Source: Clostridia bacterium
Lineage (GTDB): Bacteria; Bacillota; Clostridia; Oscillospirales; CAG-272
Assembly: GCA_017504625.1 (NCBI GenBank)
Contig: JAFVQU010000007.1
Location: forward strand, 57,275 to 121,274
Direction of reading: 5' to 3'
Length of the DNA: 64,000 bases
Under the pieces are notes generated by a model. The model was not told the origin of the DNA. It saw only the letters and a program-made list of their open reading frames with translations, and did no database searches. Shown here one piece after another: positions 52,655-63,120 of the stretch (the stretch's first letter is position 1; every line of letters starts with the position of its first letter). A program made the position numbers and the translations under genes.

Positions 52655-53314
52655 ATGATAACATACAAGGAAATAAGAAGCAACGAAACGATCCGCACGT
52701 ACGTTCAGAGTGCTGATGCGTCACTTGCAGCTCTTGGATTTACCGAGCATAGCTTCGCTCACGTCACTCACGTTGCGGAGATGGCGGGAAATATTCTGTC
52801 CGAGCTTGGTTACGATGAAAGAACGGTCGAAATTACTAAGATTGCAGGATTTTTGCACGATATCGGCAATCTCGTCAACAGAGTTGACCACTCGCAAAGC
52901 GGCGCGATTATCGCGTTCAGAATACTCGACAAAATGGGTATGGAGCCCCAAGAGATGGCAAAGATCGTTGCCGCTATCGGAAATCACGACGAGGGCACTG
53001 GTGTTCCCGTAAGTCCACTTGCAGCTGCTCTTATCATTGCCGATAAGTCGGACGTAAGACGCTCGCGAGTGCGTGAAAAGGATCTTAACGTTCATGATAT
53101 TCACGATAGGGTAAACTATTCTGTAACCGCTTCTAAGCTCTTGCTTAACAAGGCTACATCAGAAATCACCCTTAAGCTTACGATTGATACGACCTACAGC
53201 TCAGTCATGGACTATTTTGAGATCTTCCTCAGCCGTATGCTTATGTGCAAGAAAGCGGCAGACACGCTTGGACTTCAGTTCAGACTTAATATAAACGGTC
53301 AGCTTTTGCTATAA
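52655..53314 (+). CDS. HD domain-containing phosphohydrolase
   Basis: The HD motifs H...HD...D are present (FAHVTHVAEMAG and GFLHDIGN). The gene is tightly coupled to the feo genes. Confidence 0.75.
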   Translation: MITYKEIRSNETIRTYVQSADASLAALGFTEHSFAHVTHVAEMAGNILSELGYDERTVEITKIAGFLHDIGNLVNRVDHSQSGAIIAFRILDKMGMEPQEMAKIVAAIGNHDEGTGVPVSPLAAALIIADKSDVRRSRVREKDLNVHDIHDRVNYSVTASKLLLNKATSEITLKLTIDTTYSSVMDYFEIFLSRMLMCKKAADTLGLQFRLNINGQLLL

Positions 53315-53315
53315 T

Positions 53316-53346
53316 AAAAAATCCGTTGCTCAGGCAACGGATTTTT
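53316..53346. terminator. Bidirectional terminator shared by the HD gene and the convergent membrane-protein gene
   Basis: The stem aatccgttgc / gcaacggatt is flanked by an A-run and a T-run. It overlaps the last codons of the minus-strand gene. Confidence 0.8.
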
Positions 53347-54043
53347 CTTTTATTTGCTTACGTTTATTGATGATATATCCGAGAGTAGAAATTATAAACG
53401 CCGCGGCGGCGTCAATTATCAGATCCTTCATCGTATCCGAAAGCGCATCGTGACCTATCAGCTCAATACCGTCTGCAGTTCTGACCTTTTGCATATTAAG
53501 TCCCAAAAACGAATCAAATGAAAACTCGTACACTTCCCACAACGCGCCGATAGAAAGCGCAAAGGAGAACGCAAAAAGTGAGATGAAAAACGGTGTTAGT
53601 GATACCTTGACGTGACTATCCTTGTTCAAGAAGTCAACAAGCACAAATCCAAGCGCCCCGAGCATTGCGCCCGAAAAGGCGTGGAGCATCGTGTCCCAAT
53701 GAGGCACAACGTAATAAAAATCAAGCACCTCGCCAAGAAATATGGCGCAATAAAGGAAAATATAATAAAGTATGCATATCGTACCCGGAACGACTACGTT
53801 AAATTTGCGCGAAACTATCCATGGCAGACACATCACTACAAGACCGACCGAGCATTGCACCAGCATAAGAAGATAATCGCTCTTGACCTTTTCGTACTCC
53901 TCTCCCGTAGGCTCACTCGGTGCGGCAATAAATTTCACAAAAGAAAACACAACCGAAAAAACAAGAGATATAAGCAAAATAATACTTACTATTTCCCTTA
54001 CGCTATAACGCCTTTTCCTTTTTAGTCCTTTTGATCTTCCCAT
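53330..54043 (-). CDS. Hypothetical polytopic membrane protein
   Basis: The 237-aa product has about 6 TM helices. I did not recognise the family with confidence. Confidence 0.5.
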   Translation of the reverse strand: MGRSKGLKRKRRYSVREIVSIILLISLVFSVVFSFVKFIAAPSEPTGEEYEKVKSDYLLMLVQCSVGLVVMCLPWIVSRKFNVVVPGTICILYYIFLYCAIFLGEVLDFYYVVPHWDTMLHAFSGAMLGALGFVLVDFLNKDSHVKVSLTPFFISLFAFSFALSIGALWEVYEFSFDSFLGLNMQKVRTADGIELIGHDALSDTMKDLIIDAAAAFIISTLGYIINKRKQIKEKSVA

Positions 54044-54184
54044 TTTTCCCTCCGCATCGTAGATACTATATTATTATCCATATTATAACAATCCATTCTC
54101 ACTTATGCAAGATTTATAGGGATTTGTTTCCAGAAAAGTTAAGGAGTTAAAAGAAAAATCATATTGTTAAAAAAATTTAAAAAA

Positions 54185-54208
54185 GAACGCCCGAGGGCGT
54201 TCTTTTTT
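54185..54208 (-). terminator. Terminator of the MBOAT/DHHW operon
   Basis: On the minus strand, the stem gaacgccc / gggcgttc is followed by TTTTTTAAATTTTTTT. Confidence 0.85.
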
Positions 54209-54211
54209 CTT

Positions 54212-55339
54212 TTATTTAAATGTTTTATTGAAATCGGGGGAGTTAATTACAGATGCAGAGTAAATGAAAAGTACGTCCATATCTGTAAAATCACCGATCA
54301 TAGGACAAAGCTGATAGGGTGACATATAACGAATATCGGCAACGTAAACCGTCTTGTAACCCTCTGCAAGAAGGGGGGCGAGGCTGGAACCGAATGAATC
54401 TCTGAACACGACGAGAGATTTATCCGTGGTTGCATTCGGATTTTCAATTCTTAACAAAACCTTGCTTCCCGAAAGGAATAATTCGTATGCATCATCTCCA
54501 TTGACCTTGTCAAGATTGTAGATCGGCAACGTCTTGGATAAGTTCTCATAGTCGTATACAATACAAGAATCAAGTATTTCATTTGAAAGATATACTATCT
54601 TATCAGGATCGGGATTAATAGCACTCTGACCGTAGTAAACGCCATAAAAGTCGGAAACCTCATGCTTGTCATAATATCCGGACGGGTTGAAATCCATGCC
54701 CATTGCATTAGATATTTTTTCTGCAACGTCAATAATCTTGTCCTGACTCCAGTGTGTATCAGTCTTATAATAATCGGAAAGCTCAAGAGAGTTCATTATA
54801 TCAATATATTCCATCTCGCTGAGATTTTCTTTCATTATCTCAATCAACTTGTTATAATCAACAGAAGGATATCCGAATTGCTCACCTGCAAAATAGCTCT
54901 TATCGGGAATTATTGAAAAATACACGTTTGTATTTTTTCCCTTGAGATATCTGTCATATATTGTATTGAACTTCTTGCCGGCAGCATTCAAGCTATCTTC
55001 ATAAAGGGTATTCTCAACCTTAATTATCTGTCCGTCAATTATCGTGAGCTTATTGTTCTCTTTAAGTCCAAGAACGTTATACTGGAAATTTGCTTTTATA
55101 CCGCGGAAGAACTCACGGAAAGGAAACTGATCAACGCTTGCGCTTTCAAATTTGCTTATATCCGTCTTGTCAACAATTCCTTCCCAAGTTATCTCCTCGG
55201 GAAATTGAGCCAAGGGACGACGCTCTGCGACCGATGTTGCCTCGGGGTTAAAATATCCGTAAACACACATTATTGCAAAAAATGCCAAAAATGCTGAAAA
55301 CACAGAGGTCACAACTATATTTTTAATTTTATCACACAT
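54212..55339 (-). CDS. DHHW family protein (AlgJ/AlgX/DltD-like extracytoplasmic O-acyl transfer partner)
   Basis: The protein has an N-terminal TM anchor and the motif YYKTDTHWSQ, a DHHW-type signature. The gene lies directly downstream of the MBOAT gene. Confidence 0.75.
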   Translation of the reverse strand: MCDKIKNIVVTSVFSAFLAFFAIMCVYGYFNPEATSVAERRPLAQFPEEITWEGIVDKTDISKFESASVDQFPFREFFRGIKANFQYNVLGLKENNKLTIIDGQIIKVENTLYEDSLNAAGKKFNTIYDRYLKGKNTNVYFSIIPDKSYFAGEQFGYPSVDYNKLIEIMKENLSEMEYIDIMNSLELSDYYKTDTHWSQDKIIDVAEKISNAMGMDFNPSGYYDKHEVSDFYGVYYGQSAINPDPDKIVYLSNEILDSCIVYDYENLSKTLPIYNLDKVNGDDAYELFLSGSKVLLRIENPNATTDKSLVVFRDSFGSSLAPLLAEGYKTVYVADIRYMSPYQLCPMIGDFTDMDVLFIYSASVINSPDFNKTFK

Positions 55340-55357
55340 ATAATTCTACCTCCAATC

Positions 55358-56806
55358 TTAGAATCTGAAATAAAGGAAGGGGCTGAACGAGCCGTCAACG
55401 AAGTAAGACGTTACTATAAGAAGCATCGCTACAACGAATATAGGCTCAAGTATATCTATTATAAGCTTACCTGTCTTAAAGCTCTTGATCTTAAGAACTG
55501 TGTTCTTAACCACGGGTGTCGAGCCGATAAGCGCGAAGATAAGCACGAAACCGTAGCTCAAGAGATAATATCCGGTTGTTTCCGACCAGAAAGGAATTCC
55601 TCCTGCGCCAAACATACCGCCGATATCCGAGATAGCTCCCGACATGCCGTTTGCGCTGAAAAGCACAAAGCTTATAAGGATAATAAATACAACGTAGATG
55701 TGTGAGAAGACTGCGGGAATCTTCTTGAGAATATTTCCAAGGAAGAACTTTTCAAGCATGAGAAGTGCCGCAAAAAGAAGTCCCCAGAAGATAAATGTCC
55801 AGTCAGCACCGTGCCAGAAGCCCGTAAGGAACCATACTGCAAGAGTATTGAATATCCAACGGAATTTGGACACTCTGTTACCGCCGAGCGGAATGTAAAC
55901 GTAGTCACGGAACCAGGTTCCAAGCGACATGTGCCATCTTCTCCAGAATTCCGCAACGCTCTTGGAAATAAAGGGATAGTTAAAGTTCTCAAGGAACTGG
56001 AATCCGAATATTCTGCCAAGACCGATTGCCATATCGGAATAACCCGAGAAGTCAAAATAAAGCTGGAATGAAACCGCGATAGCGTATATCCAATACATAA
56101 CGACGGTCTTCTCGTCAAGTCCCATAAGAGTTCTTGCAAGACCGCCAAGCGTATCCGCAATAAGAACCTTCTTTGAAAGACCGATAACAAATCTTGTTGC
56201 TCCGTATGAGAAATTAGAGAAGGTATGCTTTCTCTCGGAAAGCTCTGCTTCTACTGTCGTGTAACGGACGATAGGTCCTGCTATGAGCTGAGGGAAAAGT
56301 GATACGTAGGTTGCAAGACGGATAAAGCTCTTCTGCACCTTTGCCTCGCCGCGATATACGTCAATGGTATAGCTGAGGATCTGGAAGGTATAGAAGCTTA
56401 TACCGATAGGGAGCGCGAGCGAGAGAAGCTTTATCTCACTGTGCGCGATTGCGTTTATATTTGTAATGAAAAAGTCTGCGTATTTGAAAAATCCGAGCGA
56501 GCCAAGGCTTATGATCACGCTTACCCAAAGGGCAACCTTAGACCATACTGTACCGCGGAACTTGTCGACGAAAAGACCTGCAATATAGTTGACGAGTATA
56601 GTCGAAACCATAAGTATCGTGTATATCGGTTCGCCGTAAAAATAGAAGAACAAGCTCGCGATAAGAAGCACAAAGTTCTTCGCTTCAAAATAATAATATT
56701 CTCCGTTTGATTTCTTAAATATTTTGATCTTGAACGGCATAATAAAATATACCGCAAGAACACCTACTAAAAAGTAGAAAAGAAAGCTTATGCTTGAAAA
56801 TAGCAA
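55358..56806 (-). CDS. MBOAT family O-acyltransferase (AlgI/DltB/PatA-like)
   Basis: The 482-aa polytopic product contains FWRRWHMSLGTWFRDYVYIPLGGNR, which includes the conserved MBOAT His. Confidence 0.88.
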   Translation of the reverse strand: MLFSSISFLFYFLVGVLAVYFIMPFKIKIFKKSNGEYYYFEAKNFVLLIASLFFYFYGEPIYTILMVSTILVNYIAGLFVDKFRGTVWSKVALWVSVIISLGSLGFFKYADFFITNINAIAHSEIKLLSLALPIGISFYTFQILSYTIDVYRGEAKVQKSFIRLATYVSLFPQLIAGPIVRYTTVEAELSERKHTFSNFSYGATRFVIGLSKKVLIADTLGGLARTLMGLDEKTVVMYWIYAIAVSFQLYFDFSGYSDMAIGLGRIFGFQFLENFNYPFISKSVAEFWRRWHMSLGTWFRDYVYIPLGGNRVSKFRWIFNTLAVWFLTGFWHGADWTFIFWGLLFAALLMLEKFFLGNILKKIPAVFSHIYVVFIILISFVLFSANGMSGAISDIGGMFGAGGIPFWSETTGYYLLSYGFVLIFALIGSTPVVKNTVLKIKSFKTGKLIIDILEPIFVVAMLLIVTSYFVDGSFSPFLYFRF

Positions 56807-56843
56807 TGTTTTTTCTCCTTATACCGTTATGTTTTTACAAATT

Positions 56844-56867
56844 TGGCGTAGCCGTATGGCTACGCCA
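56844..56867 (-). terminator. Hairpin between the lipoprotein gene and the MBOAT gene (possible partial terminator or processing site)
   Basis: A 10-bp perfect stem (tggcgtagcc / ggctacgcca) encloses a 4-nt loop. The downstream U-tract is weak. Confidence 0.4.
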
Positions 56868-56886
56868 TAAATATTTGTCCTATATA

Positions 56887-57528
56887 TTAGAGGATAACGC
56901 CCTCACAGAGAACAGTTGCATTCTCGTATGTTGCTGCGATAGCAGTCTTCATAACGTTAACCTGAGCCTCAAGACCGAATCCTGCGAATATGTAGTCACC
57001 AACCTGGATTGCAAAGTAGATCTCAGGGAAACCGCAGAACCACATGTTGTTAGTTACAGCAGACTCAAAGTCAGATGCAATGGTTGCAACGTCTGCAGAG
57101 TTCTTTACATGGTAAACAAAGGTAGTGAAGTTGTTTGCGTTCATACCGGTGAAAAGAGCTGCGTCGTCAATCTTCTCAAGGTTTGCCTCGGAAATAAGTG
57201 TTCCGGACATAAGAGCGCCGATAGCATACTCGTTATCAAGAGGAACAACCTTTGCTGCGCCGATGCAGTGTGTATCTTCACTCTCACCATAGTATCCACC
57301 GTTGAAATACGCCTTAACCTCTTCAACAGGCATTTCAAAGAGGGGAGCAGCCTCTGTAAGGAATGCGTCAACAGTAGCATTGAGCATATCTTCAGCAGAC
57401 TTTACTTCAACAACAGTGCTGGGTGCTTCAGTGGTAGTTTCTTCATCAGAAGTATTGTTAGTGTTGCCGCAAGCAACGAGTGTGAGGAGCATCATAGATG
57501 CAAGGATAAGTGCAAGAATCTTTTTCAT
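56887..57528 (-). CDS. Lipoprotein (possibly DUF4358-type) associated with MBOAT/DHHW
   Basis: A signal peptide with lipobox LVAC-G (MKKILALILASMMLLTLVACGN) is followed by a Ser/Thr/Glu-rich linker. Confidence 0.65.
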   Translation of the reverse strand: MKKILALILASMMLLTLVACGNTNNTSDEETTTEAPSTVVEVKSAEDMLNATVDAFLTEAAPLFEMPVEEVKAYFNGGYYGESEDTHCIGAAKVVPLDNEYAIGALMSGTLISEANLEKIDDAALFTGMNANNFTTFVYHVKNSADVATIASDFESAVTNNMWFCGFPEIYFAIQVGDYIFAGFGLEAQVNVMKTAIAATYENATVLCEGVIL

Positions 57529-57597
57529 TTTAGTTCTCTCTTTCTTATTATGTTTATTTTTTTACTTACTTATCGAGGGCGTGTTTTTACCCTCCGT

Positions 57598-57631
57598 TTA
57601 TAATACAGAGAAAATCGAAAAAGGTGACCGA
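57598..57631 (-). promoter_or_regulatory. Bipartite motif copy B (TCGGTCACC-N16-GTATTATAA) upstream of the lipoprotein-MBOAT-DHHW genes
   Basis: The minus-strand sequence is TCGGTCACCTTTTTC...GTATTATAA. Both 9-mers and the spacing are identical to copy A at 58989-59022. Confidence 0.65.
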
Positions 57632-57652
57632 CTTTCTCAAATATTTTTCAAA

Positions 57653-58291
57653 TTATTTTTCAAAAGGAGCAAATTCAACGATACTCCAGTTGCCATTATC
57701 GTCAGGTGTCAAGCGGATTATCATCTCTCCTGTGCTCTGATCAATAAAAGTGTTCAAAATATCGTTATCGTAGAATGCAACGTCTGCTTCAAAGGTTTCG
57801 TTGGTCTTTTCAAGGTCAACCTTAAGGTCATCCGACTTCTCGATAAGACCGTCTGCCGTTATTGTAACCTTGCAGCGTCTTGTGACACCGTCTGCCTTCT
57901 CAACATCAGTAAGGCTGACAAAGCTTATGTTGTCAATGTTTCCATTTATAACGATATATCCGTTTTCAAATTCACGCTCAAAAACAAGCATTGCCGCTCC
58001 GTCTGTCGATGCTTCTGTTACCGCAAGCTCAGCAAGAGTTCTGACTGCGGGGGTATTTACGTCGTTGCCGCCCGCGTTACCGTCAAGTCGCGCTATTCCC
58101 ATTCCCATAAAGAACACAAGCACGAAAGCGCAAACCGCACCCGCAAGTCGCATTCCAAACGAGTAGGATGGCAGGAAGAAGCGTCGCTGCTGACGTTCCT
58201 TTTGCTCTGCGACCTTATTTATCGTCGAGCTTATAAGCTCCTCTCTCGGTCTTATTCTGCCGAGCGAAGCCTTCAAATCATTTTTCTTCAT
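57653..58291 (-). CDS. Putative anti-sigma factor (single-pass membrane protein downstream of the ECF sigma gene)
   Basis: The protein has a short cytoplasmic N-terminus, a TM helix (LAGAVCAFVLVFFMGMGIA) and an ectodomain of about 140 aa. No zf-HC2 motif is present, so the call rests on position only. Confidence 0.5.
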   Translation of the reverse strand: MKKNDLKASLGRIRPREELISSTINKVAEQKERQQRRFFLPSYSFGMRLAGAVCAFVLVFFMGMGIARLDGNAGGNDVNTPAVRTLAELAVTEASTDGAAMLVFEREFENGYIVINGNIDNISFVSLTDVEKADGVTRRCKVTITADGLIEKSDDLKVDLEKTNETFEADVAFYDNDILNTFIDQSTGEMIIRLTPDDNGNWSIVEFAPFEK

Positions 58292-58379
58292 AATATATAA
58301 ACCGATTCCCTTTCTTTCGGTAAAAATCAACTTTACAAAAATATGGGCGCCGAATAAGGATTTTTAACCGTCATTTACC

Positions 58380-58973
58380 TTATTCGGCGTCATTGTCTGC
58401 TAACTCGAGTTTTAATTTCTGTCGTGCCCGCGACAGTCTTTTTTTTACGTTAACCTCGGAGGTTTGCAGAACCTGTGAGATCTCACGAATGGACATTTCT
58501 TCATAATAATACAGCAGTATCACCTCGCGCATATTCTGCGGAAGCTTAAGCACCTCGGCGTAAACATCAGGCCCGTCACCGAGGTCACACTCCTCGGTTG
58601 TTTCATCAGGAATCTGCGACATTATCGCATCGTCCAGTGAATCGATATTTTTTCGCCACGGCGCCGTGAAATGCGAATTACAGCAGTTGATCGTGACACG
58701 TATTAGCCACGCCTTTCTGTGCTCCTCATTATCAAAGGGCTTCGTGTTCATGACGAGCTTCAGGAATACCTCCTGAAATATATCGTCTGCGTCATGTGAT
58801 GACTGCGTTTTTGTCAACGCTATGCGATAGACCATGTCGGAGTAATACCGCACGACCTCGTCGGTGACCTCCATCGGTAAATCGGGAGGGGTTCCCTTCG
58901 GCACGTGCCTGTATATATTACTCATTTCAGAGTCTTTTTCGCGAGAAACGTCGTATGAATCTAAATGCTCCAT
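58380..58973 (-). CDS. ECF-type RNA polymerase sigma factor
   Basis: Region 2 (DADDIFQEVFLKL and AWLIRVTINCCNSH) and region 4 (REVILLYYYEEMSIREISQVLQTSEVNVKKRLSRARQKL) are present. I prefer ATG 58973 (AAGGA RBS) because GTG 58988 abuts the upstream promoter motif. Confidence 0.85.
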   Translation of the reverse strand: MEHLDSYDVSREKDSEMSNIYRHVPKGTPPDLPMEVTDEVVRYYSDMVYRIALTKTQSSHDADDIFQEVFLKLVMNTKPFDNEEHRKAWLIRVTINCCNSHFTAPWRKNIDSLDDAIMSQIPDETTEECDLGDGPDVYAEVLKLPQNMREVILLYYYEEMSIREISQVLQTSEVNVKKRLSRARQKLKLELADNDAE

Positions 58974-58988
58974 TTTGTGTTCCTTCAC

Positions 58989-59022
58989 TTATAATACAAA
59001 TTTCCTTGAAAAAGGTGACCGA
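58989..59022 (-). promoter_or_regulatory. Bipartite motif copy A (TCGGTCACC-N16-GTATTATAA) immediately upstream of the ECF sigma gene
   Basis: The minus-strand sequence is TCGGTCACCTTTTTC...GTATTATAA, with the same 16-nt spacing as copy B. Confidence 0.65.
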
Positions 59023-59252
59023 AAAAAATAAAAAATTTCAAAAAATATTTTTTTCGGCGATTTTTTAGCGTGTCGTATGCTCATTCGTGGCGTGCAAATC
59101 CGCCCTCAACTAACCATACAACTTATGTATTATAATATATTATCGGTAAAAAGTCAAGCATATATATTTATTTTAACGATAGTATTGAAAAATAAAGAAA
59201 AATATGATAGAATAAATCTATTGAATTATTTTACTGTTCGGAGGCAACGAAA

Positions 59253-60131
59253 ATGAAGCTTACGAAAATATTTGAATCAGAAAGACCGCATCTTTCCTTT
59301 GAGGTATTTCCCCCGAAGACCACGACGGCATTTGAAAGCGTCAAGCACGCGACAGAGGAGATAGCAAAGCTCTCACCCTCCTTTATGAGCGTGACCTACG
59401 GCGCGGGCGGCGGCACAAGTCAATACACTCTTGACATAGCTAAACATATAAACGAAGAATACGGAGTACCTACTCTTGCGCATCTCACCTGCGTTTCCTC
59501 AACCAAGGAAACAGTTAAAGATATGATCAACAAGATTATATCCGCAGGGATCGAAAACGTAATGGCTCTACGCGGCGATATTCCCGCTGATAAATTGAAC
59601 GAGGACAGGAGTAAGTGGACATATCACCACGCAATTGATCTTGTGCGCGAGCTTCGTAATTGCGGTGCAGATTTCTGTATCGGCGGCGCGTGCTATCCGG
59701 AAATTCATCCCGAAAGCGCAACTCAGAGCGAAGATATTAAATATTTAAAGGAAAAAGTCGACGCGGGCTGTGATTTTCTCACTACGCAGATGTTCTTTGA
59801 TAATAATCTTCTCTACAATTTCTTATATAAAATTCGTGAGGCGGGTATCACCGTGCCGATCATTCCCGGAATAATGCCGATAACGAACGGCAACCAGATA
59901 GAACGCGCACTAAAGCTCTCGGGCTCGTTTATTCCGCAGAGATTTAAATCACTCGTGGACAAATTCGGCTCCGATCCCGAGGCTATGAAGCAAGCGGGTA
60001 TTGCCTATGCGACCGATCAGATCATAGACCTATACGCAAACGGAATTACAAACGTTCACGTCTATTCGATGAACAAGCCCGACGTTGCCGAGAAGATACA
60101 AGCAAACATATCTGCTATTTTAGGAAAATGA
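59253..60131 (+). CDS. metF: Methylenetetrahydrofolate reductase
   Basis: The 292-aa product has a MetF-like TIM-barrel sequence (SFEVFPPKT and SVTYGAGG). A GGAGG RBS is present. Confidence 0.9.
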   Translation: MKLTKIFESERPHLSFEVFPPKTTTAFESVKHATEEIAKLSPSFMSVTYGAGGGTSQYTLDIAKHINEEYGVPTLAHLTCVSSTKETVKDMINKIISAGIENVMALRGDIPADKLNEDRSKWTYHHAIDLVRELRNCGADFCIGGACYPEIHPESATQSEDIKYLKEKVDAGCDFLTTQMFFDNNLLYNFLYKIREAGITVPIIPGIMPITNGNQIERALKLSGSFIPQRFKSLVDKFGSDPEAMKQAGIAYATDQIIDLYANGITNVHVYSMNKPDVAEKIQANISAILGK

Positions 60132-60733
60132 GCATAATAAAGATAAAAGAATACCCCGCGCCCGAAGTAAATAGGAGTGAGATACTCAGATATATGCAGG
60201 CAAAGGGTGGCGATAGCGCACTTGATGCTCTTATTGAGCGCGGGCTTAAGCTGATTGAGGACAAGCTTTGCTTCAGAGTTTGTTATGCTGAATTCCCTGT
60301 TTCCCTGCGCGATGGCGCGCTTAATCTTGGATTTACCGTGACAGATAGCCGCGATCTTTCAAAATGCCTTAACGGATGCGACCGAATTCTGCTTTTTGCC
60401 GCAACTGTCGGCATTGAGCTTGACAGGCAAATTTTACGATATAGCAGGCTTGAGCCGTCGATGGCTCTCTGCCTCCAGGCAATAGGCTCAGAGCGCGCAG
60501 AGGCGCTTTGTGACGCCTTCTGCGACGATATGGAAATGCAGTATAATGAGCAAGGCTTTTCTCTGCGTCCGCGCTTCAGCGCGGGATACGGAGATCTTCC
60601 ATTATCTTTGCAAGAGGATATAATCAAGACACTTAATACTCCTAAAAACATAGGTGTCAGCTTAAACGAAAGCTTACTGATGTCGCCGTCAAAAAGCGTA
60701 ACGGCGATTATCGGAATTAAAGGTGAAAAATGA
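60128..60733 (+). CDS. Stand-alone methionine synthase reactivation (AdoMet-binding activation) domain protein
   Basis: The 201-aa product contains RPRFSAGYGD and PSKSVTAIIG, as in the MetH C-terminal activation domain. It has 4-nt overlaps with both metF and metH. Confidence 0.75.
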   Translation: MSIIKIKEYPAPEVNRSEILRYMQAKGGDSALDALIERGLKLIEDKLCFRVCYAEFPVSLRDGALNLGFTVTDSRDLSKCLNGCDRILLFAATVGIELDRQILRYSRLEPSMALCLQAIGSERAEALCDAFCDDMEMQYNEQGFSLRPRFSAGYGDLPLSLQEDIIKTLNTPKNIGVSLNESLLMSPSKSVTAIIGIKGEK

Positions 60734-63120
60734 AAATTCTCGATTATTTAAAAGAAAATATACTCTACCTTGACGGCGGTATGGGAACTCTTTTGCAAGC
60801 CGAAGGACTTACGGCTGGCGAGCATCCTGAAAGATGGAATATCACTCACCCCGAGGTTATACAGAGAATACACCGCGACTATTATGACGCGGGATCAAAC
60901 GTCGTATCAACAAATACTTTCGGCGCAAATCTTCTTAAATTTTCACGTGATGAGCTTGAAAATATAATTAAAGCGGCGGTTGAAAATGCAAAGCTTGCAA
61001 AGGAAAGCTCCCGCAACCACGGTGAGAAATATATCGCACTTGATATAGGCCCCTCAGGAAAGATGCTTAAGCCCTATGGCGACCTCGATTTTGAGGATGC
61101 GGTATCTCTTTTCGCTGAAACGGTTAAAATCGGAGTAAAATACGGAGTTGACCTTATATACATTGAAACGATGAGCGACAGCTATGAAACCAAGGCGGCT
61201 TTACTTGCGGCAAAGGAAAGCTGCGACCTCCCCGTTTTCGTATCGAATGCATACGGCTCTGACGGCAGACTTATGACGGGCGCATCGCCCGCGGCTATGG
61301 TTGCTATGCTTGAGGGTATGGGAGCTGATGCCATCGGTGTAAACTGTTCGCTTGGCCCGAAGCAACTCGCGCCCATCGTTGAGGAAATATTAAAATATTC
61401 CTCCCTGCCCGTCATCCTCAAGCCCAACGCGGGACTTCCCGAGGTGATAAACGGCAAAACCGTATACAATATTACCCCCGACGAGTTTGCAAACGAGGTA
61501 AAATCGCTTATTGGCAAAGGCGTGCGTATCGCGGGTGGATGTTGCGGCACGACGCCCGAATATATTGCGGCGGTTACCAATTTAAAGTGTGAAACCCCTC
61601 TGCTCACCGTCAAGAAAAGTCACACCATCGTATCGTCATATACGCACGCGGTAGAAATCGCCGATTCACCTATTCTTATCGGCGAGCGCATTAATCCCAC
61701 GGGTAAGGCAAGATTCAAGCAGGCTCTGCGCGATAACGACCTTGATTATATTCTCAAGGAAGGACTTGACCAGGAAGCGCGCGGAGTTCATATCCTTGAC
61801 GTCAACGTAGGTCTTCCCGACATTGACGAGAGTGAGATGATGACAAGAGTTATTTGTGAGCTTCAGGCTATATGTGATCTTCCGCTTCAGATCGACACCT
61901 CAAGCACCGAGGCTATGGAATCCGCTCTACGTCGATACAACGGCAAGGCAATGATAAACTCGGTCAACGGCAAAGAGGAATCAATGCGCAAGATATTCCC
62001 TCTCGTAAGAAAATACGGCGGCGTTGTTGTTGCTCTTACGCTTGACGAGAACGGCATTCCCGAAACTGCCGATGGCAGAGTCGAAATCGCAAAAAAGATA
62101 CTCTCAACCGCTGCAGAATACGGCATTGACAAGAAAGACATCGTATTTGATACTCTCACAATGACGGTAAGCGCGGATAAGAACGCGGCAAAGGTTACTC
62201 TTGACTCGCTTGAATTTATCACCAAGGAGCTTGGCTGCAAGACCGTGCTTGGCGTTTCAAATATCTCTTTTGGTCTGCCTGCGCGTGATATTATGAATAG
62301 TGTTTTCTTCACCTGTGCTCTTGAGCGCGGGCTTAGTGCGGCAATTATGAATCCCTATTCCGATGAAATGATGAAGGTTTATTATTCCTTCCGCGCTTTA
62401 CATTCTCACGATGAGAATTTTGCTGATTATATTGATTTTTCATCGCGAGTCAGCACACTTACAACAGCCTCCGGCGCAGTAAATGCTGCCGTATCAAGTG
62501 ACGATACCACCTTGCGCGGCGCGATAATCAAAGGGCTTCGCGAAAAGGCACGCGAGCTTTCAGTTGATATGCTCAAGGACAATGCTCCGCTTGAAATCGT
62601 CAAGGAGCATATAATCCCCGCTCTTGACGTGGTCGGCAAGGGCTTTGAGGCAAAGGAAATATATCTCCCCTCTCTTCTTATGAGTGCTGAGGCGGCTAAA
62701 TCAGCGTTTGAGCCTATCAGCGAGGCAATTCTTAAGGCAAAGGTCGCAGACGAGGTTAAAACGACAGTTGTTATGGCAACCGTCAAGGGCGACATTCACG
62801 ATATCGGCAAAAACATCGTTTGCCTGCTCCTTGAAAATTACGGCTTCCGTGTCATCGACCTCGGCCGCGACGTTGAGCCGCAAAGAATTGTTGACGCGGC
62901 ACTTGAAAGTAACGCGGATGTTGTAGGTCTCAGCGCACTCATGACAACGACGGTTCCCGCAATGGAAGAAACTATAAAGTTACTCCGTGAGAAAGCCCCC
63001 AAATGCAAAATAATGGTAGGTGGCGCGGTGCTTACCGAGAGCTATTCCCGTCGTATCGGCGCTGACCACTACGCCCCCGACGCTATGGATGGCGTGAGAT
63101 TTGTTGAGGGGTTGAAATAA
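60730..63120 (+). CDS. metH: Cobalamin-dependent methionine synthase lacking the activation domain (Hcy-binding + pterin-binding + B12-binding modules)
   Basis: The 796-aa product has a homocysteine S-methyltransferase N-terminus with GGCCGTTP, a pterin-binding module, and the B12-binding DxHxxG motif (GDIHDIGKN). Confidence 0.9.
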   Translation: MKILDYLKENILYLDGGMGTLLQAEGLTAGEHPERWNITHPEVIQRIHRDYYDAGSNVVSTNTFGANLLKFSRDELENIIKAAVENAKLAKESSRNHGEKYIALDIGPSGKMLKPYGDLDFEDAVSLFAETVKIGVKYGVDLIYIETMSDSYETKAALLAAKESCDLPVFVSNAYGSDGRLMTGASPAAMVAMLEGMGADAIGVNCSLGPKQLAPIVEEILKYSSLPVILKPNAGLPEVINGKTVYNITPDEFANEVKSLIGKGVRIAGGCCGTTPEYIAAVTNLKCETPLLTVKKSHTIVSSYTHAVEIADSPILIGERINPTGKARFKQALRDNDLDYILKEGLDQEARGVHILDVNVGLPDIDESEMMTRVICELQAICDLPLQIDTSSTEAMESALRRYNGKAMINSVNGKEESMRKIFPLVRKYGGVVVALTLDENGIPETADGRVEIAKKILSTAAEYGIDKKDIVFDTLTMTVSADKNAAKVTLDSLEFITKELGCKTVLGVSNISFGLPARDIMNSVFFTCALERGLSAAIMNPYSDEMMKVYYSFRALHSHDENFADYIDFSSRVSTLTTASGAVNAAVSSDDTTLRGAIIKGLREKARELSVDMLKDNAPLEIVKEHIIPALDVVGKGFEAKEIYLPSLLMSAEAAKSAFEPISEAILKAKVADEVKTTVVMATVKGDIHDIGKNIVCLLLENYGFRVIDLGRDVEPQRIVDAALESNADVVGLSALMTTTVPAMEETIKLLREKAPKCKIMVGGAVLTESYSRRIGADHYAPDAMDGVRFVEGLK

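Follow-up and report, generated by a model that had tools for sequence, protein, structure and literature searches.

The 64,000-nucleotide stretch of Clostridia bacterium DNA analysed here (GenBank assembly GCA_017504625.1, contig JAFVQU010000007.1, positions 57,275 to 121,274; hereafter the window) carries on its minus strand a gene for a sigma factor of the extracytoplasmic function (ECF) type, followed by a membrane-protein gene and by genes for a lipoprotein, an MBOAT-family acyltransferase and a DHHW-family protein. The same bipartite sequence element stands in front of the sigma gene (copy A) and in front of the lipoprotein gene (copy B), which raises the question of whether it is a novel ECF promoter or the site of a separate regulator combined with a housekeeping -10 element. 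Comparison with related loci favours an ECF promoter, and the adjacent sigma factor (58973-58380) is likely to read both copies. The layout is very probably that of an autoregulated ECF sigma factor with one linked target operon, an ordinary architecture combined with a new recognition sequence.

On re-reading the minus strand, copy A was found as TCGGTCACCTTTTTCAAGGAAATTTGTATTATAA at 59022-58989 and copy B as TCGGTCACCTTTTTCGATTTTCTCTGTATTATAA at 57631-57598, laid out as TCGGTCACC TTTTTCAAGGAAATTT GTATTATAA and TCGGTCACC TTTTTCGATTTTCTCT GTATTATAA, respectively. The original prediction, a reading of the same DNA by a model, had described two identical 9-mers separated by 16 nt in each copy, and both this description and its coordinates were correct; the first six spacer bases, TTTTTC, are also common to both copies. 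Its placement of the copies held as well, in that copy A lies at the edge of the sigma open reading frame, 16 nt before ATG 58973 with a GAAGGA ribosome-binding site in this short leader, and 70 nt separate the end of copy B from ATG 57528 of the lipoprotein gene. A search of the window for TCGGTCACC-N16-GTATTATAA with up to three mismatches allowed returned copies A and B and no other site, while dinucleotide-preserving shuffles averaged 0.03 matches, with two matches in none of the 100. Neither TCGGTCACC nor GTCACCTTTT occurred elsewhere in the window on either strand. When the window was scored with a weight matrix made from orthologous sites, copies A and B reached about 40 bits each and the rest of the window 14 bits at most. 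A third candidate at about 8670 (GTCACCTTTC-N13-GTATAT) was rejected with fewer than 14 bits and the wrong spacing. The parts of the two copies are as follows.

59020 to 59045, minus strand: A/T-tract block, UP-element-like, upstream of copy A, from an alignment of 22 sites
59009 to 59019, minus strand: copy A -35 element GTCACC and -35-proximal T-tract (GTCACCTTTTT), with GTCAC in 25/25 ortholog sites
58992 to 58997, minus strand: copy A -10 element GTATTA, from the site alignment
57632 to 57650, minus strand: A/T-tract block upstream of copy B, from the site alignment
57618 to 57628, minus strand: copy B -35 element GTCACC and T-tract, from the site alignment and weight matrix
57601 to 57606, minus strand: copy B -10 element GTATTA, from the site alignment

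From the geometry of ECF promoters, transcription from copy A would start at about 58990-58986 and leave a leader of only about 13-17 nt that holds GAAGGA, and transcription from copy B would start at about 57599-57595 with a 5' untranslated region of about 70 nt.

A scan of one genome per species yielded 12 loci that encode close relatives of the sigma factor, all of them in metagenome-assembled genomes labelled Oscillospiraceae, Eubacteriales, Clostridia bacterium or Candidatus Limiplasma and several of them from ruminant or deer gut. Eleven loci encode the sigma factor at 62-86% identity, and the twelfth (L012) is truncated and matches only its C-terminal 75 residues. The comparison set therefore comprised 25 sites in 13 sequences, with both copies from the window and the 11 full loci and copy B only from L012. 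Gene order, namely sigma factor, membrane protein, a variable lipoprotein, MBOAT and DHHW, was kept wherever the contig was long enough. In all 11 full loci the motif occupied the same two positions, just 5' of the sigma gene and between the membrane-protein and lipoprotein genes, and the weight matrix found exactly two matches in each. A shared element of this kind had been proposed as the signature of an autoregulated ECF regulon, and the conservation of both the site pair and the gene order in every relative examined strongly supports this reading.

The consensus of the orthologous sites consists of A/T tracts, c-G/T-GTCACCTTTT, 12 nt and GTATTA, which can also be written cGTCACCTTTT-N12-GTATTA. 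The distance between the two blocks was the same in 22/25 sites and one nucleotide longer in 3/25. Over 22 sites, the GTCACCTTTT and GTATTA blocks were near-invariant and the eight inner positions of the spacer held about 0.1-0.5 bit. GTCAC, the TTT next to it and GTAT are invariant by the way the sites were selected; positions outside this selection pattern were also kept, including G at -1 (18/22), T at +9 (20/22), T at +26 (21/22) and A at +27 (19/22) of the alignment, together with an upstream block, AAAATTTTTT-n-AAAAA, at positions -20 to -5 relative to the -35 G. As a control for circularity, 6-mers were counted in 24 regions that had been set by gene coordinates only. GTCACC, TCACCT, CACCTT, ACCTTT and CCTTTT were each present in 22-23 of the 24 regions and GTATTA in 22, while in 200 shuffles no 6-mer containing G or C was common to more than 9 regions.

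We compared the element with promoters of known ECF sigma factors, placing the G of GTCACC at -35 so that the register reads G-35 T-34 C-33 A-32 C-31 C-30 T-29 TTT ... G-13 T-12 A-11 T-10. The SigW consensus of Bacillus subtilis is TGAAAC-N16,17-CGTA, extendable to CGTAT (PMC2375139), and in the SigW region 4/DNA crystal structure the -35 element is G-35 A-34 A-33 A-32 C-31 C-30 T-29 (PMC6713349). In ECF promoters of B. subtilis, the homopolymeric T-tract that occupies -29 to -26 acts as a functional element (PMC5758882). The present sites share the register and spacing of SigW (ECF01) promoters as well as G-35, AC at -32/-31, C-30, TTTT at -29 to -26 and GTAT at -13 to -10, and GTCACCTTTT aligned base for base with the SigW -35 element GAAACCTTT with mismatches at -34 and -33 only. 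The -35 core is thus GTCAC here and GAAAC for SigW, the C of CGTA is variable here, and the -10 element extends as GTATTA. The two systems are also alike in the autoregulatory promoter, predicted in the present case, directly 5' of the sigma gene.

The original prediction had held that GGTCACC does not resemble the common GAAC-type ECF -35 element; this view was not upheld, considering the alignment with SigW and the fact that a GTCAC-type -35 is known for ECF41. ECF41 promoters, TGTCACA-N16-CGTC, have a GTCAC-based -35 that was verified by experiment (Wecke et al. 2012, PMC3426412), and the likeness extends to a spacing of 16 ± 1 and a very small regulon adjoining the sigma gene. However, ECF41 sigma factors have a C-terminal regulatory extension of about 100 aa, lack an anti-sigma factor and act on neighbouring COE (carboxymuconolactone decarboxylase, oxidoreductase or epimerase) genes, whereas the sigma factor of the window, with 197 aa, stops just past region 4, a membrane-protein gene comes after it, its predicted target is an MBOAT/DHHW operon, and the -10 element is GTAT instead of CGTC. 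Membership in ECF41 was rejected because the C-terminal extension is missing (region 4 ends at about residue 193) and a membrane protein and an MBOAT/DHHW operon follow. The description of the downstream half as sigma-A-like stood in part: it is accurate for this genome, but across the orthologs the invariant part is GTAT(TA) and the last T is kept in 16/22 sites. The GTA(T) of the -10 element is invariant and matches the CGTA(T) of SigW-type promoters, and the element as a whole has the bipartite -35/-10 form with a rigid spacer of about 16-17 nt that characterises ECF promoters. In addition, the AAAATTTTTT-n-AAAAA block, at about -55 to -40, resembles the UP-element consensus, as would be expected of a polymerase-binding site rather than of an operator.

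The protein expected to read these sites is encoded directly downstream of copy A.

58380 to 58973, minus strand: gene for the ECF sigma factor, 197 aa, with no regions other than 2 and 4, from Pfam and family models

Its Pfam domains are Sigma70_r2 (residues 41-104) and Sigma70_r4_2 (residues 139-187), which place it in the ECF group (group IV) of the sigma-70 family. The protein passed the generic ECF model TIGR02937 with 84 bits against a cutoff of 43 and reached no named equivalog, falling far under every cutoff of the SigW, SigV, SigM, SigX and SigY equivalog models. Its closest solved relatives are Mycobacterium tuberculosis SigE and B. subtilis SigW (E 1.4e-14). We rejected orthology with SigW (ECF01), for which NF007223 gave 74 bits against 209 and TIGR02948 gave 67 against 243 and the partner protein has no zf-HC2/RsiW-type zinc domain, and orthology with SigV (ECF30), for which NF053879 gave 74 bits against a cutoff of 190 and the partner has no family match.

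In the HMMER alignment, SigW residue n corresponds to residue n+7 of the query across the recognition helix. The query retains, as K177, the SigW residue K170 that contacts G'-31 and, as R179 and R182, the residues R172 and R175 that contact G-35. In contrast, N175 and K178 replace T168 and T171, which contact A-34, and S181 replaces H174, which packs on T'-32 and T'-33. Judged by homology to the SigW/DNA crystal structure, the residues that differ would be the ones that face the two altered -35 bases. Among the 3232 database proteins that matched the sigma factor at E <= 1e-10, the closest 120 and the query share an invariant helix, E-x-N-[VI]-K-K-R-L-S-R-A-R, except for one K-to-R change at 177, and this invariance parallels that of the -35 block. 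At the equivalent location, homologs of 30-34% identity show ECF-type motifs of another sequence, for example TGAAAC...CGTTAA and GTCCAA...CGTCTA.

The specificity of the motif was analysed outside the cluster. In 745 kb of unrelated loci, the weight matrix found no site above 17 bits. A search of a metagenome collection for exact GGTCACCTTTT-N12-GTATTA returned 63 stretches that contain 64 sites. Seven of the sites adjoin relatives of the sigma, membrane-protein, lipoprotein or MBOAT genes; their positions are the two that were expected, and the A/T-tract flank is present. Sorting the matches by the longest stop-free span was uninformative, as true sites also fell in spurious open frames, and the sites were rescored with a flank-only weight matrix that used only those positions which the search pattern leaves free. 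The seven cluster-linked sites scored +4 to +36, one other site (L102) scored +11.7, and the remaining 56 were at -17 or lower. The L102 site lies inside a 108-aa open reading frame on the opposite strand of an unrelated contig, presumably a nucleotidyltransferase as judged by eye from its sequence, and was treated as a chance match. In this exact-match scan, promoter-like copies of the motif were thus confined to the neighbourhood of this gene cluster. Among the chance matches, seven (L081, L088, L094, L107, L109, L112 and L114) carry the same conserved sequence (…ATGACCTGGTCACCTTTTATTGTGACTTTGGTATTACC…) on contigs of several assemblies, which has the appearance of a conserved coding stretch in some widespread gene that is unrelated.

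We considered whether both sites could instead be sigma-A promoters with TATTAT as the -10 element and GTCACCTTTT as the site of a separate transcription factor over a weak -35. In the window, TATTAT matches TATAAT at 5/6 positions and GGTCACC forms a GGTnACC palindrome, and the base equivalent to A-11 is invariant. The comparison with relatives makes this arrangement improbable, since only 16/22 sites keep the final T of the hexamer, which in a -10 element is normally the best-conserved base, and the invariant G directly abuts the hexamer, unlike the geometry of a TGn extended -10. GTCACC agrees with TTGACA at only 3/6 positions, and a sigma-70 consensus scan called neither site. Four loci do not form the palindrome, with TGTCACC in L007 and L009 and GGTCACT in L010 and L011, so that a palindromic GGTnACC operator was rejected because its outer G or C is not conserved in these four loci; moreover, the GTCACCTTTT block is asymmetric and lacks a second half-site, and the sigma gene is the sole regulator gene conserved in the cluster. 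True sigma-A promoters are found apart from the motif, upstream of copy A, and the one in the window is the following element.

59129 to 59157, minus strand: sigma-A-type promoter P1, TTGACT-17-TATAAT, directed toward the sigma gene, with 11/12 consensus matches and about 110 nt upstream of copy A

By eye, promoters of the form TTGnnn-17-(TGn)TATAAT/TATACT were found 60-130 nt upstream of copy A in most orthologs, so that the housekeeping promoters of the organism look unlike the motif. With P1 upstream of copy A, the sigma gene seems to have a basal and an autoregulatory promoter, a layout found also for B. subtilis sigM and sigX. The leader from P1 would have about 150 nt and has no Rfam match, and the stretch between P1 and copy A is seemingly not conserved in relatives.

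Within the ECF interpretation, the sites could be read mainly by another ECF sigma factor encoded at a different place of the genome, or by several whose specificities overlap, as with B. subtilis SigM, SigW, SigX and SigV. Overlapping recognition is indeed common among ECF sigma factors and is promoted by -35-proximal T-tracts, but autoregulatory ECF promoters are usually the most sigma-specific (PMC5758882). The motif also travels strictly with this sigma gene across genomes, its promoter-like metagenome copies lie only beside the cluster, and the recognition helix is invariant along with it, so we regard a different reader as unlikely. Neutral similarity left over from a local duplication of a promoter region, with no present function at one or both sites, would agree with the bases just 3' of the -10 element that are common to both copies and with an AGTG-AAGG-like sequence that lies far from the start codon in copy B. 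This explanation is hardly credible, as both blocks are kept in both copies down to 62% sigma identity while spacer and flanks are randomised, a pattern that indicates selection and not a recent duplication; loss of copy B was looked for in relatives that keep the operon and was seen in none of the 11 informative loci.

Several points weigh against reading the sites as ECF promoters of the adjacent sigma factor. The -35 element lacks the common AAC core and has CAC, as GTCAC, in 25/25 sites, and the C of the usual CGT core of the -10 element is not conserved, the preceding base being T in 15, G in 4, C in 2 and A in 1 of 22 sites. The co-variation of residues and bases derives from homology to the SigW/DNA crystal structure and not from a structure of this protein. 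Some use by sigma-A may occur, because GTATTAT overlaps a 5/6 match to TATAAT. The regulon may exceed two promoters, since the scan for it covered 64 kb of this genome and, in each relative, about 12 kb. The organism is known from metagenome assemblies only, and the case was built in silico.

For the adjacent sigma factor as the reader of both promoters, the following mechanism can be proposed. Its region 4 would read GTCACC as the -35 element, aided by the adjacent T-tract and the upstream A/T-rich UP-like block, and its region 2 would read GTAT(TA) as the -10 element, 16 nt 3' of GTCAC. Basal transcription from P1 would supply the sigma factor and its membrane partner, and the partner, by analogy with other membrane anti-sigma factors, would keep the sigma factor inactive until an envelope signal arrives. 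The freed sigma factor would then transcribe the sigma and anti-sigma genes from copy A, in positive autoregulation, and the lipoprotein-MBOAT-DHHW operon from copy B, whose products may O-acylate an extracytoplasmic cell-wall polymer.

The membrane partner and the target operon in this model comprise the following features.

57653 to 58291, minus strand: putative membrane anti-sigma factor, 212 aa, from synteny, alignment and a structure model
56887 to 57528, minus strand: lipoprotein gene, first of the target operon, with lipoprotein signal-peptide matches only
55358 to 56806, minus strand: MBOAT-family membrane O-acyltransferase (PatA/AlgI/DltB-like), PF03062, 4.6e-27
54212 to 55339, minus strand: DHHW-family protein, similar to Bacillus cereus PatB1, PF14286 4.4e-18 and 5V8D E 4.5e-9
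54179 to 54208, minus strand: bidirectional intrinsic terminator ending the operon, a 13-bp stem with a T-run on both strands

The motif lies directly 5' of the sigma gene and a co-oriented membrane-protein gene comes next, as in ECF sigma/anti-sigma modules. The 212-aa protein has a conserved N-terminus of 35 aa (MKKxELKASLGRIxPREELI..T), one transmembrane helix and an extracytoplasmic beta-rich domain, and its position and topology suggest an anti-sigma factor. It matched no family and no known anti-sigma domain in Pfam and NCBIfam, and its own family comprises 22 database homologs. The cytoplasmic part is too short for the classical four-helix class I anti-sigma domain. The ectodomain of about 100 aa was confidently modelled (predicted local distance difference test, pLDDT, about 90), and the model gave weak OB-fold-like matches in the PDB, the best of which, SSB and PriB at E of about 0.01, were not significant.

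In the target operon, the MBOAT protein scored 146 bits with the DltB model, under the cutoff of 375. The MBOAT and DHHW genes are adjacent in all syntenic loci, as is characteristic of PatA/PatB-like two-component genes, with identities of 57-84% for MBOAT and 41-59% for DHHW. Considering that an MBOAT protein is paired with a DHHW protein similar to PatB1, the operon looks like a PatA/PatB-type system that is predicted to O-acylate an extracytoplasmic polymer. PatA/PatB-type systems, represented by B. cereus PatB1 (5V8D), AlgI/AlgJ and DltB/DltD, likewise combine an MBOAT protein with an extracytoplasmic PatB1-like (DHHW) transferase, whereas the pair described here follows a poorly conserved lipoprotein gene and always has the putative ECF promoter upstream in the family studied. 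In L002-L011, only the signal peptide of the lipoprotein is conserved and its length varies about two-fold.

The proposed circuit is analogous to SigV-RsiV, in which an ECF sigma factor and a membrane anti-sigma factor switch on nearby envelope-modifying enzymes (oatA and dlt in B. subtilis, peptidoglycan deacetylases in Clostridioides difficile and Enterococcus faecalis). The target of SigV in B. subtilis is an O-acetyltransferase, oatA (PMC4183432), and SigV also switches on the dlt operon there (PMC5758882). Unlike SigV-RsiV, the sigma factor here is not a SigV ortholog, the partner has no detectable RsiV-type domain, and the enzymes are MBOAT and PatB1-like proteins and not OatA.

Two hairpins accompany the predicted transcripts.

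58348 to 58389, minus strand: 12-bp hairpin over the sigma stop codon (arms 58389-58378 and 58359-58348), then a T-rich run, from conservation
57575 to 57594, minus strand: small hairpin GAGGGT...GCCCTC at the 5' end of the predicted copy-B transcript, -10 kcal/mol

The arms of the first hairpin, CGCCGAATAAGG ... CCTTATTCGGCG, are conserved in 8 close relatives (including L001-L005, L095 and L105) with two compensatory pairs, and the equivalent place is taken by another hairpin in some relatives that are more distant (L006, L007). We consider it a candidate partial terminator or attenuator between the sigma and anti-sigma genes. Sigma and anti-sigma genes are normally tightly coupled, and a partial terminator between them would be unusual. 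A 5'-proximal hairpin, differing in sequence, is present in most copy-B leaders of the orthologs and absent in L009, L011 and L105. Copies A and B share an AGTG-AAGG-like sequence 3' of the -10 element, which in copy A forms the ribosome-binding site. The copy-B version is separated from the start codon by about 60 nt and usually belongs to the 5'-end hairpin. A small leader peptide following this ribosome-binding-site-like sequence of copy B was rejected, as no start codon is at a suitable distance. The hairpin and AGTG-AAGG element of copy B may act as a 5' stabiliser or be a leftover of promoter duplication. An Rfam scan of 53000-60000 at E <= 1 gave only sub-threshold chance matches at the terminator and no riboswitch or known leader near either copy.

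A literature search found no paper that combines ECF, sigma and DHHW, and the main text of the ECF reclassification paper contains no mention of MBOAT, acyltransferase or GTCAC (PMC7826278). With these findings, an uncharacterised ECF sigma family, abundant in the metagenomes of rumen and gut, gains a well-supported consensus for its promoters along with a minimal regulon. The link between the sigma factor and a PatA/PatB-like operon suggests an inducible envelope modification, for example lysozyme or cationic-peptide resistance, in organisms not yet cultured. The two-base difference of the -35 element from SigW, with matching changes in contact residues, is a small data point for the recognition code of ECF region 4 and for the design of orthogonal sigma/promoter pairs, and the general understanding of ECF regulation is unchanged. 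More tentatively, the system might represent an ECF group not classified so far, from uncultured Clostridia of gut and rumen, with its own promoter code (GTCACC-TTTT ... GTATTA and the K-K-R-L-S-R helix), a new minimal anti-sigma factor with a two-helix cytoplasmic part of about 35 aa and an OB-fold-like ectodomain that matches no known sensor, a terminator-like hairpin able to uncouple the amounts of sigma and anti-sigma factors, and a regulon of one PatA/PatB-type operon. This wider proposal is possible but doubtful; if true, it would mean a new pathway for sensing envelope stress or host defence and a ready-made orthogonal sigma/promoter pair.

The genes around the cluster were also noted. 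Divergent from the sigma gene, the plus strand at 59253-63120 encodes metF (methylenetetrahydrofolate reductase, MTHFR), a separate activation-domain protein of methionine synthase (201 aa) and a B12-dependent methionine synthase of 796 aa that lacks this domain, an arrangement that amounts to a split MetH. A riboswitch search of 59000-60000 detected none, and metF is the divergent neighbour of the sigma gene also in L003, L004 and L084. On the other side, 3' of the operon terminator, the minus strand at 53330-54043 encodes a 237-aa multi-pass membrane protein that has no family match and whose gene has its own terminator-like hairpin at 53317-53346.

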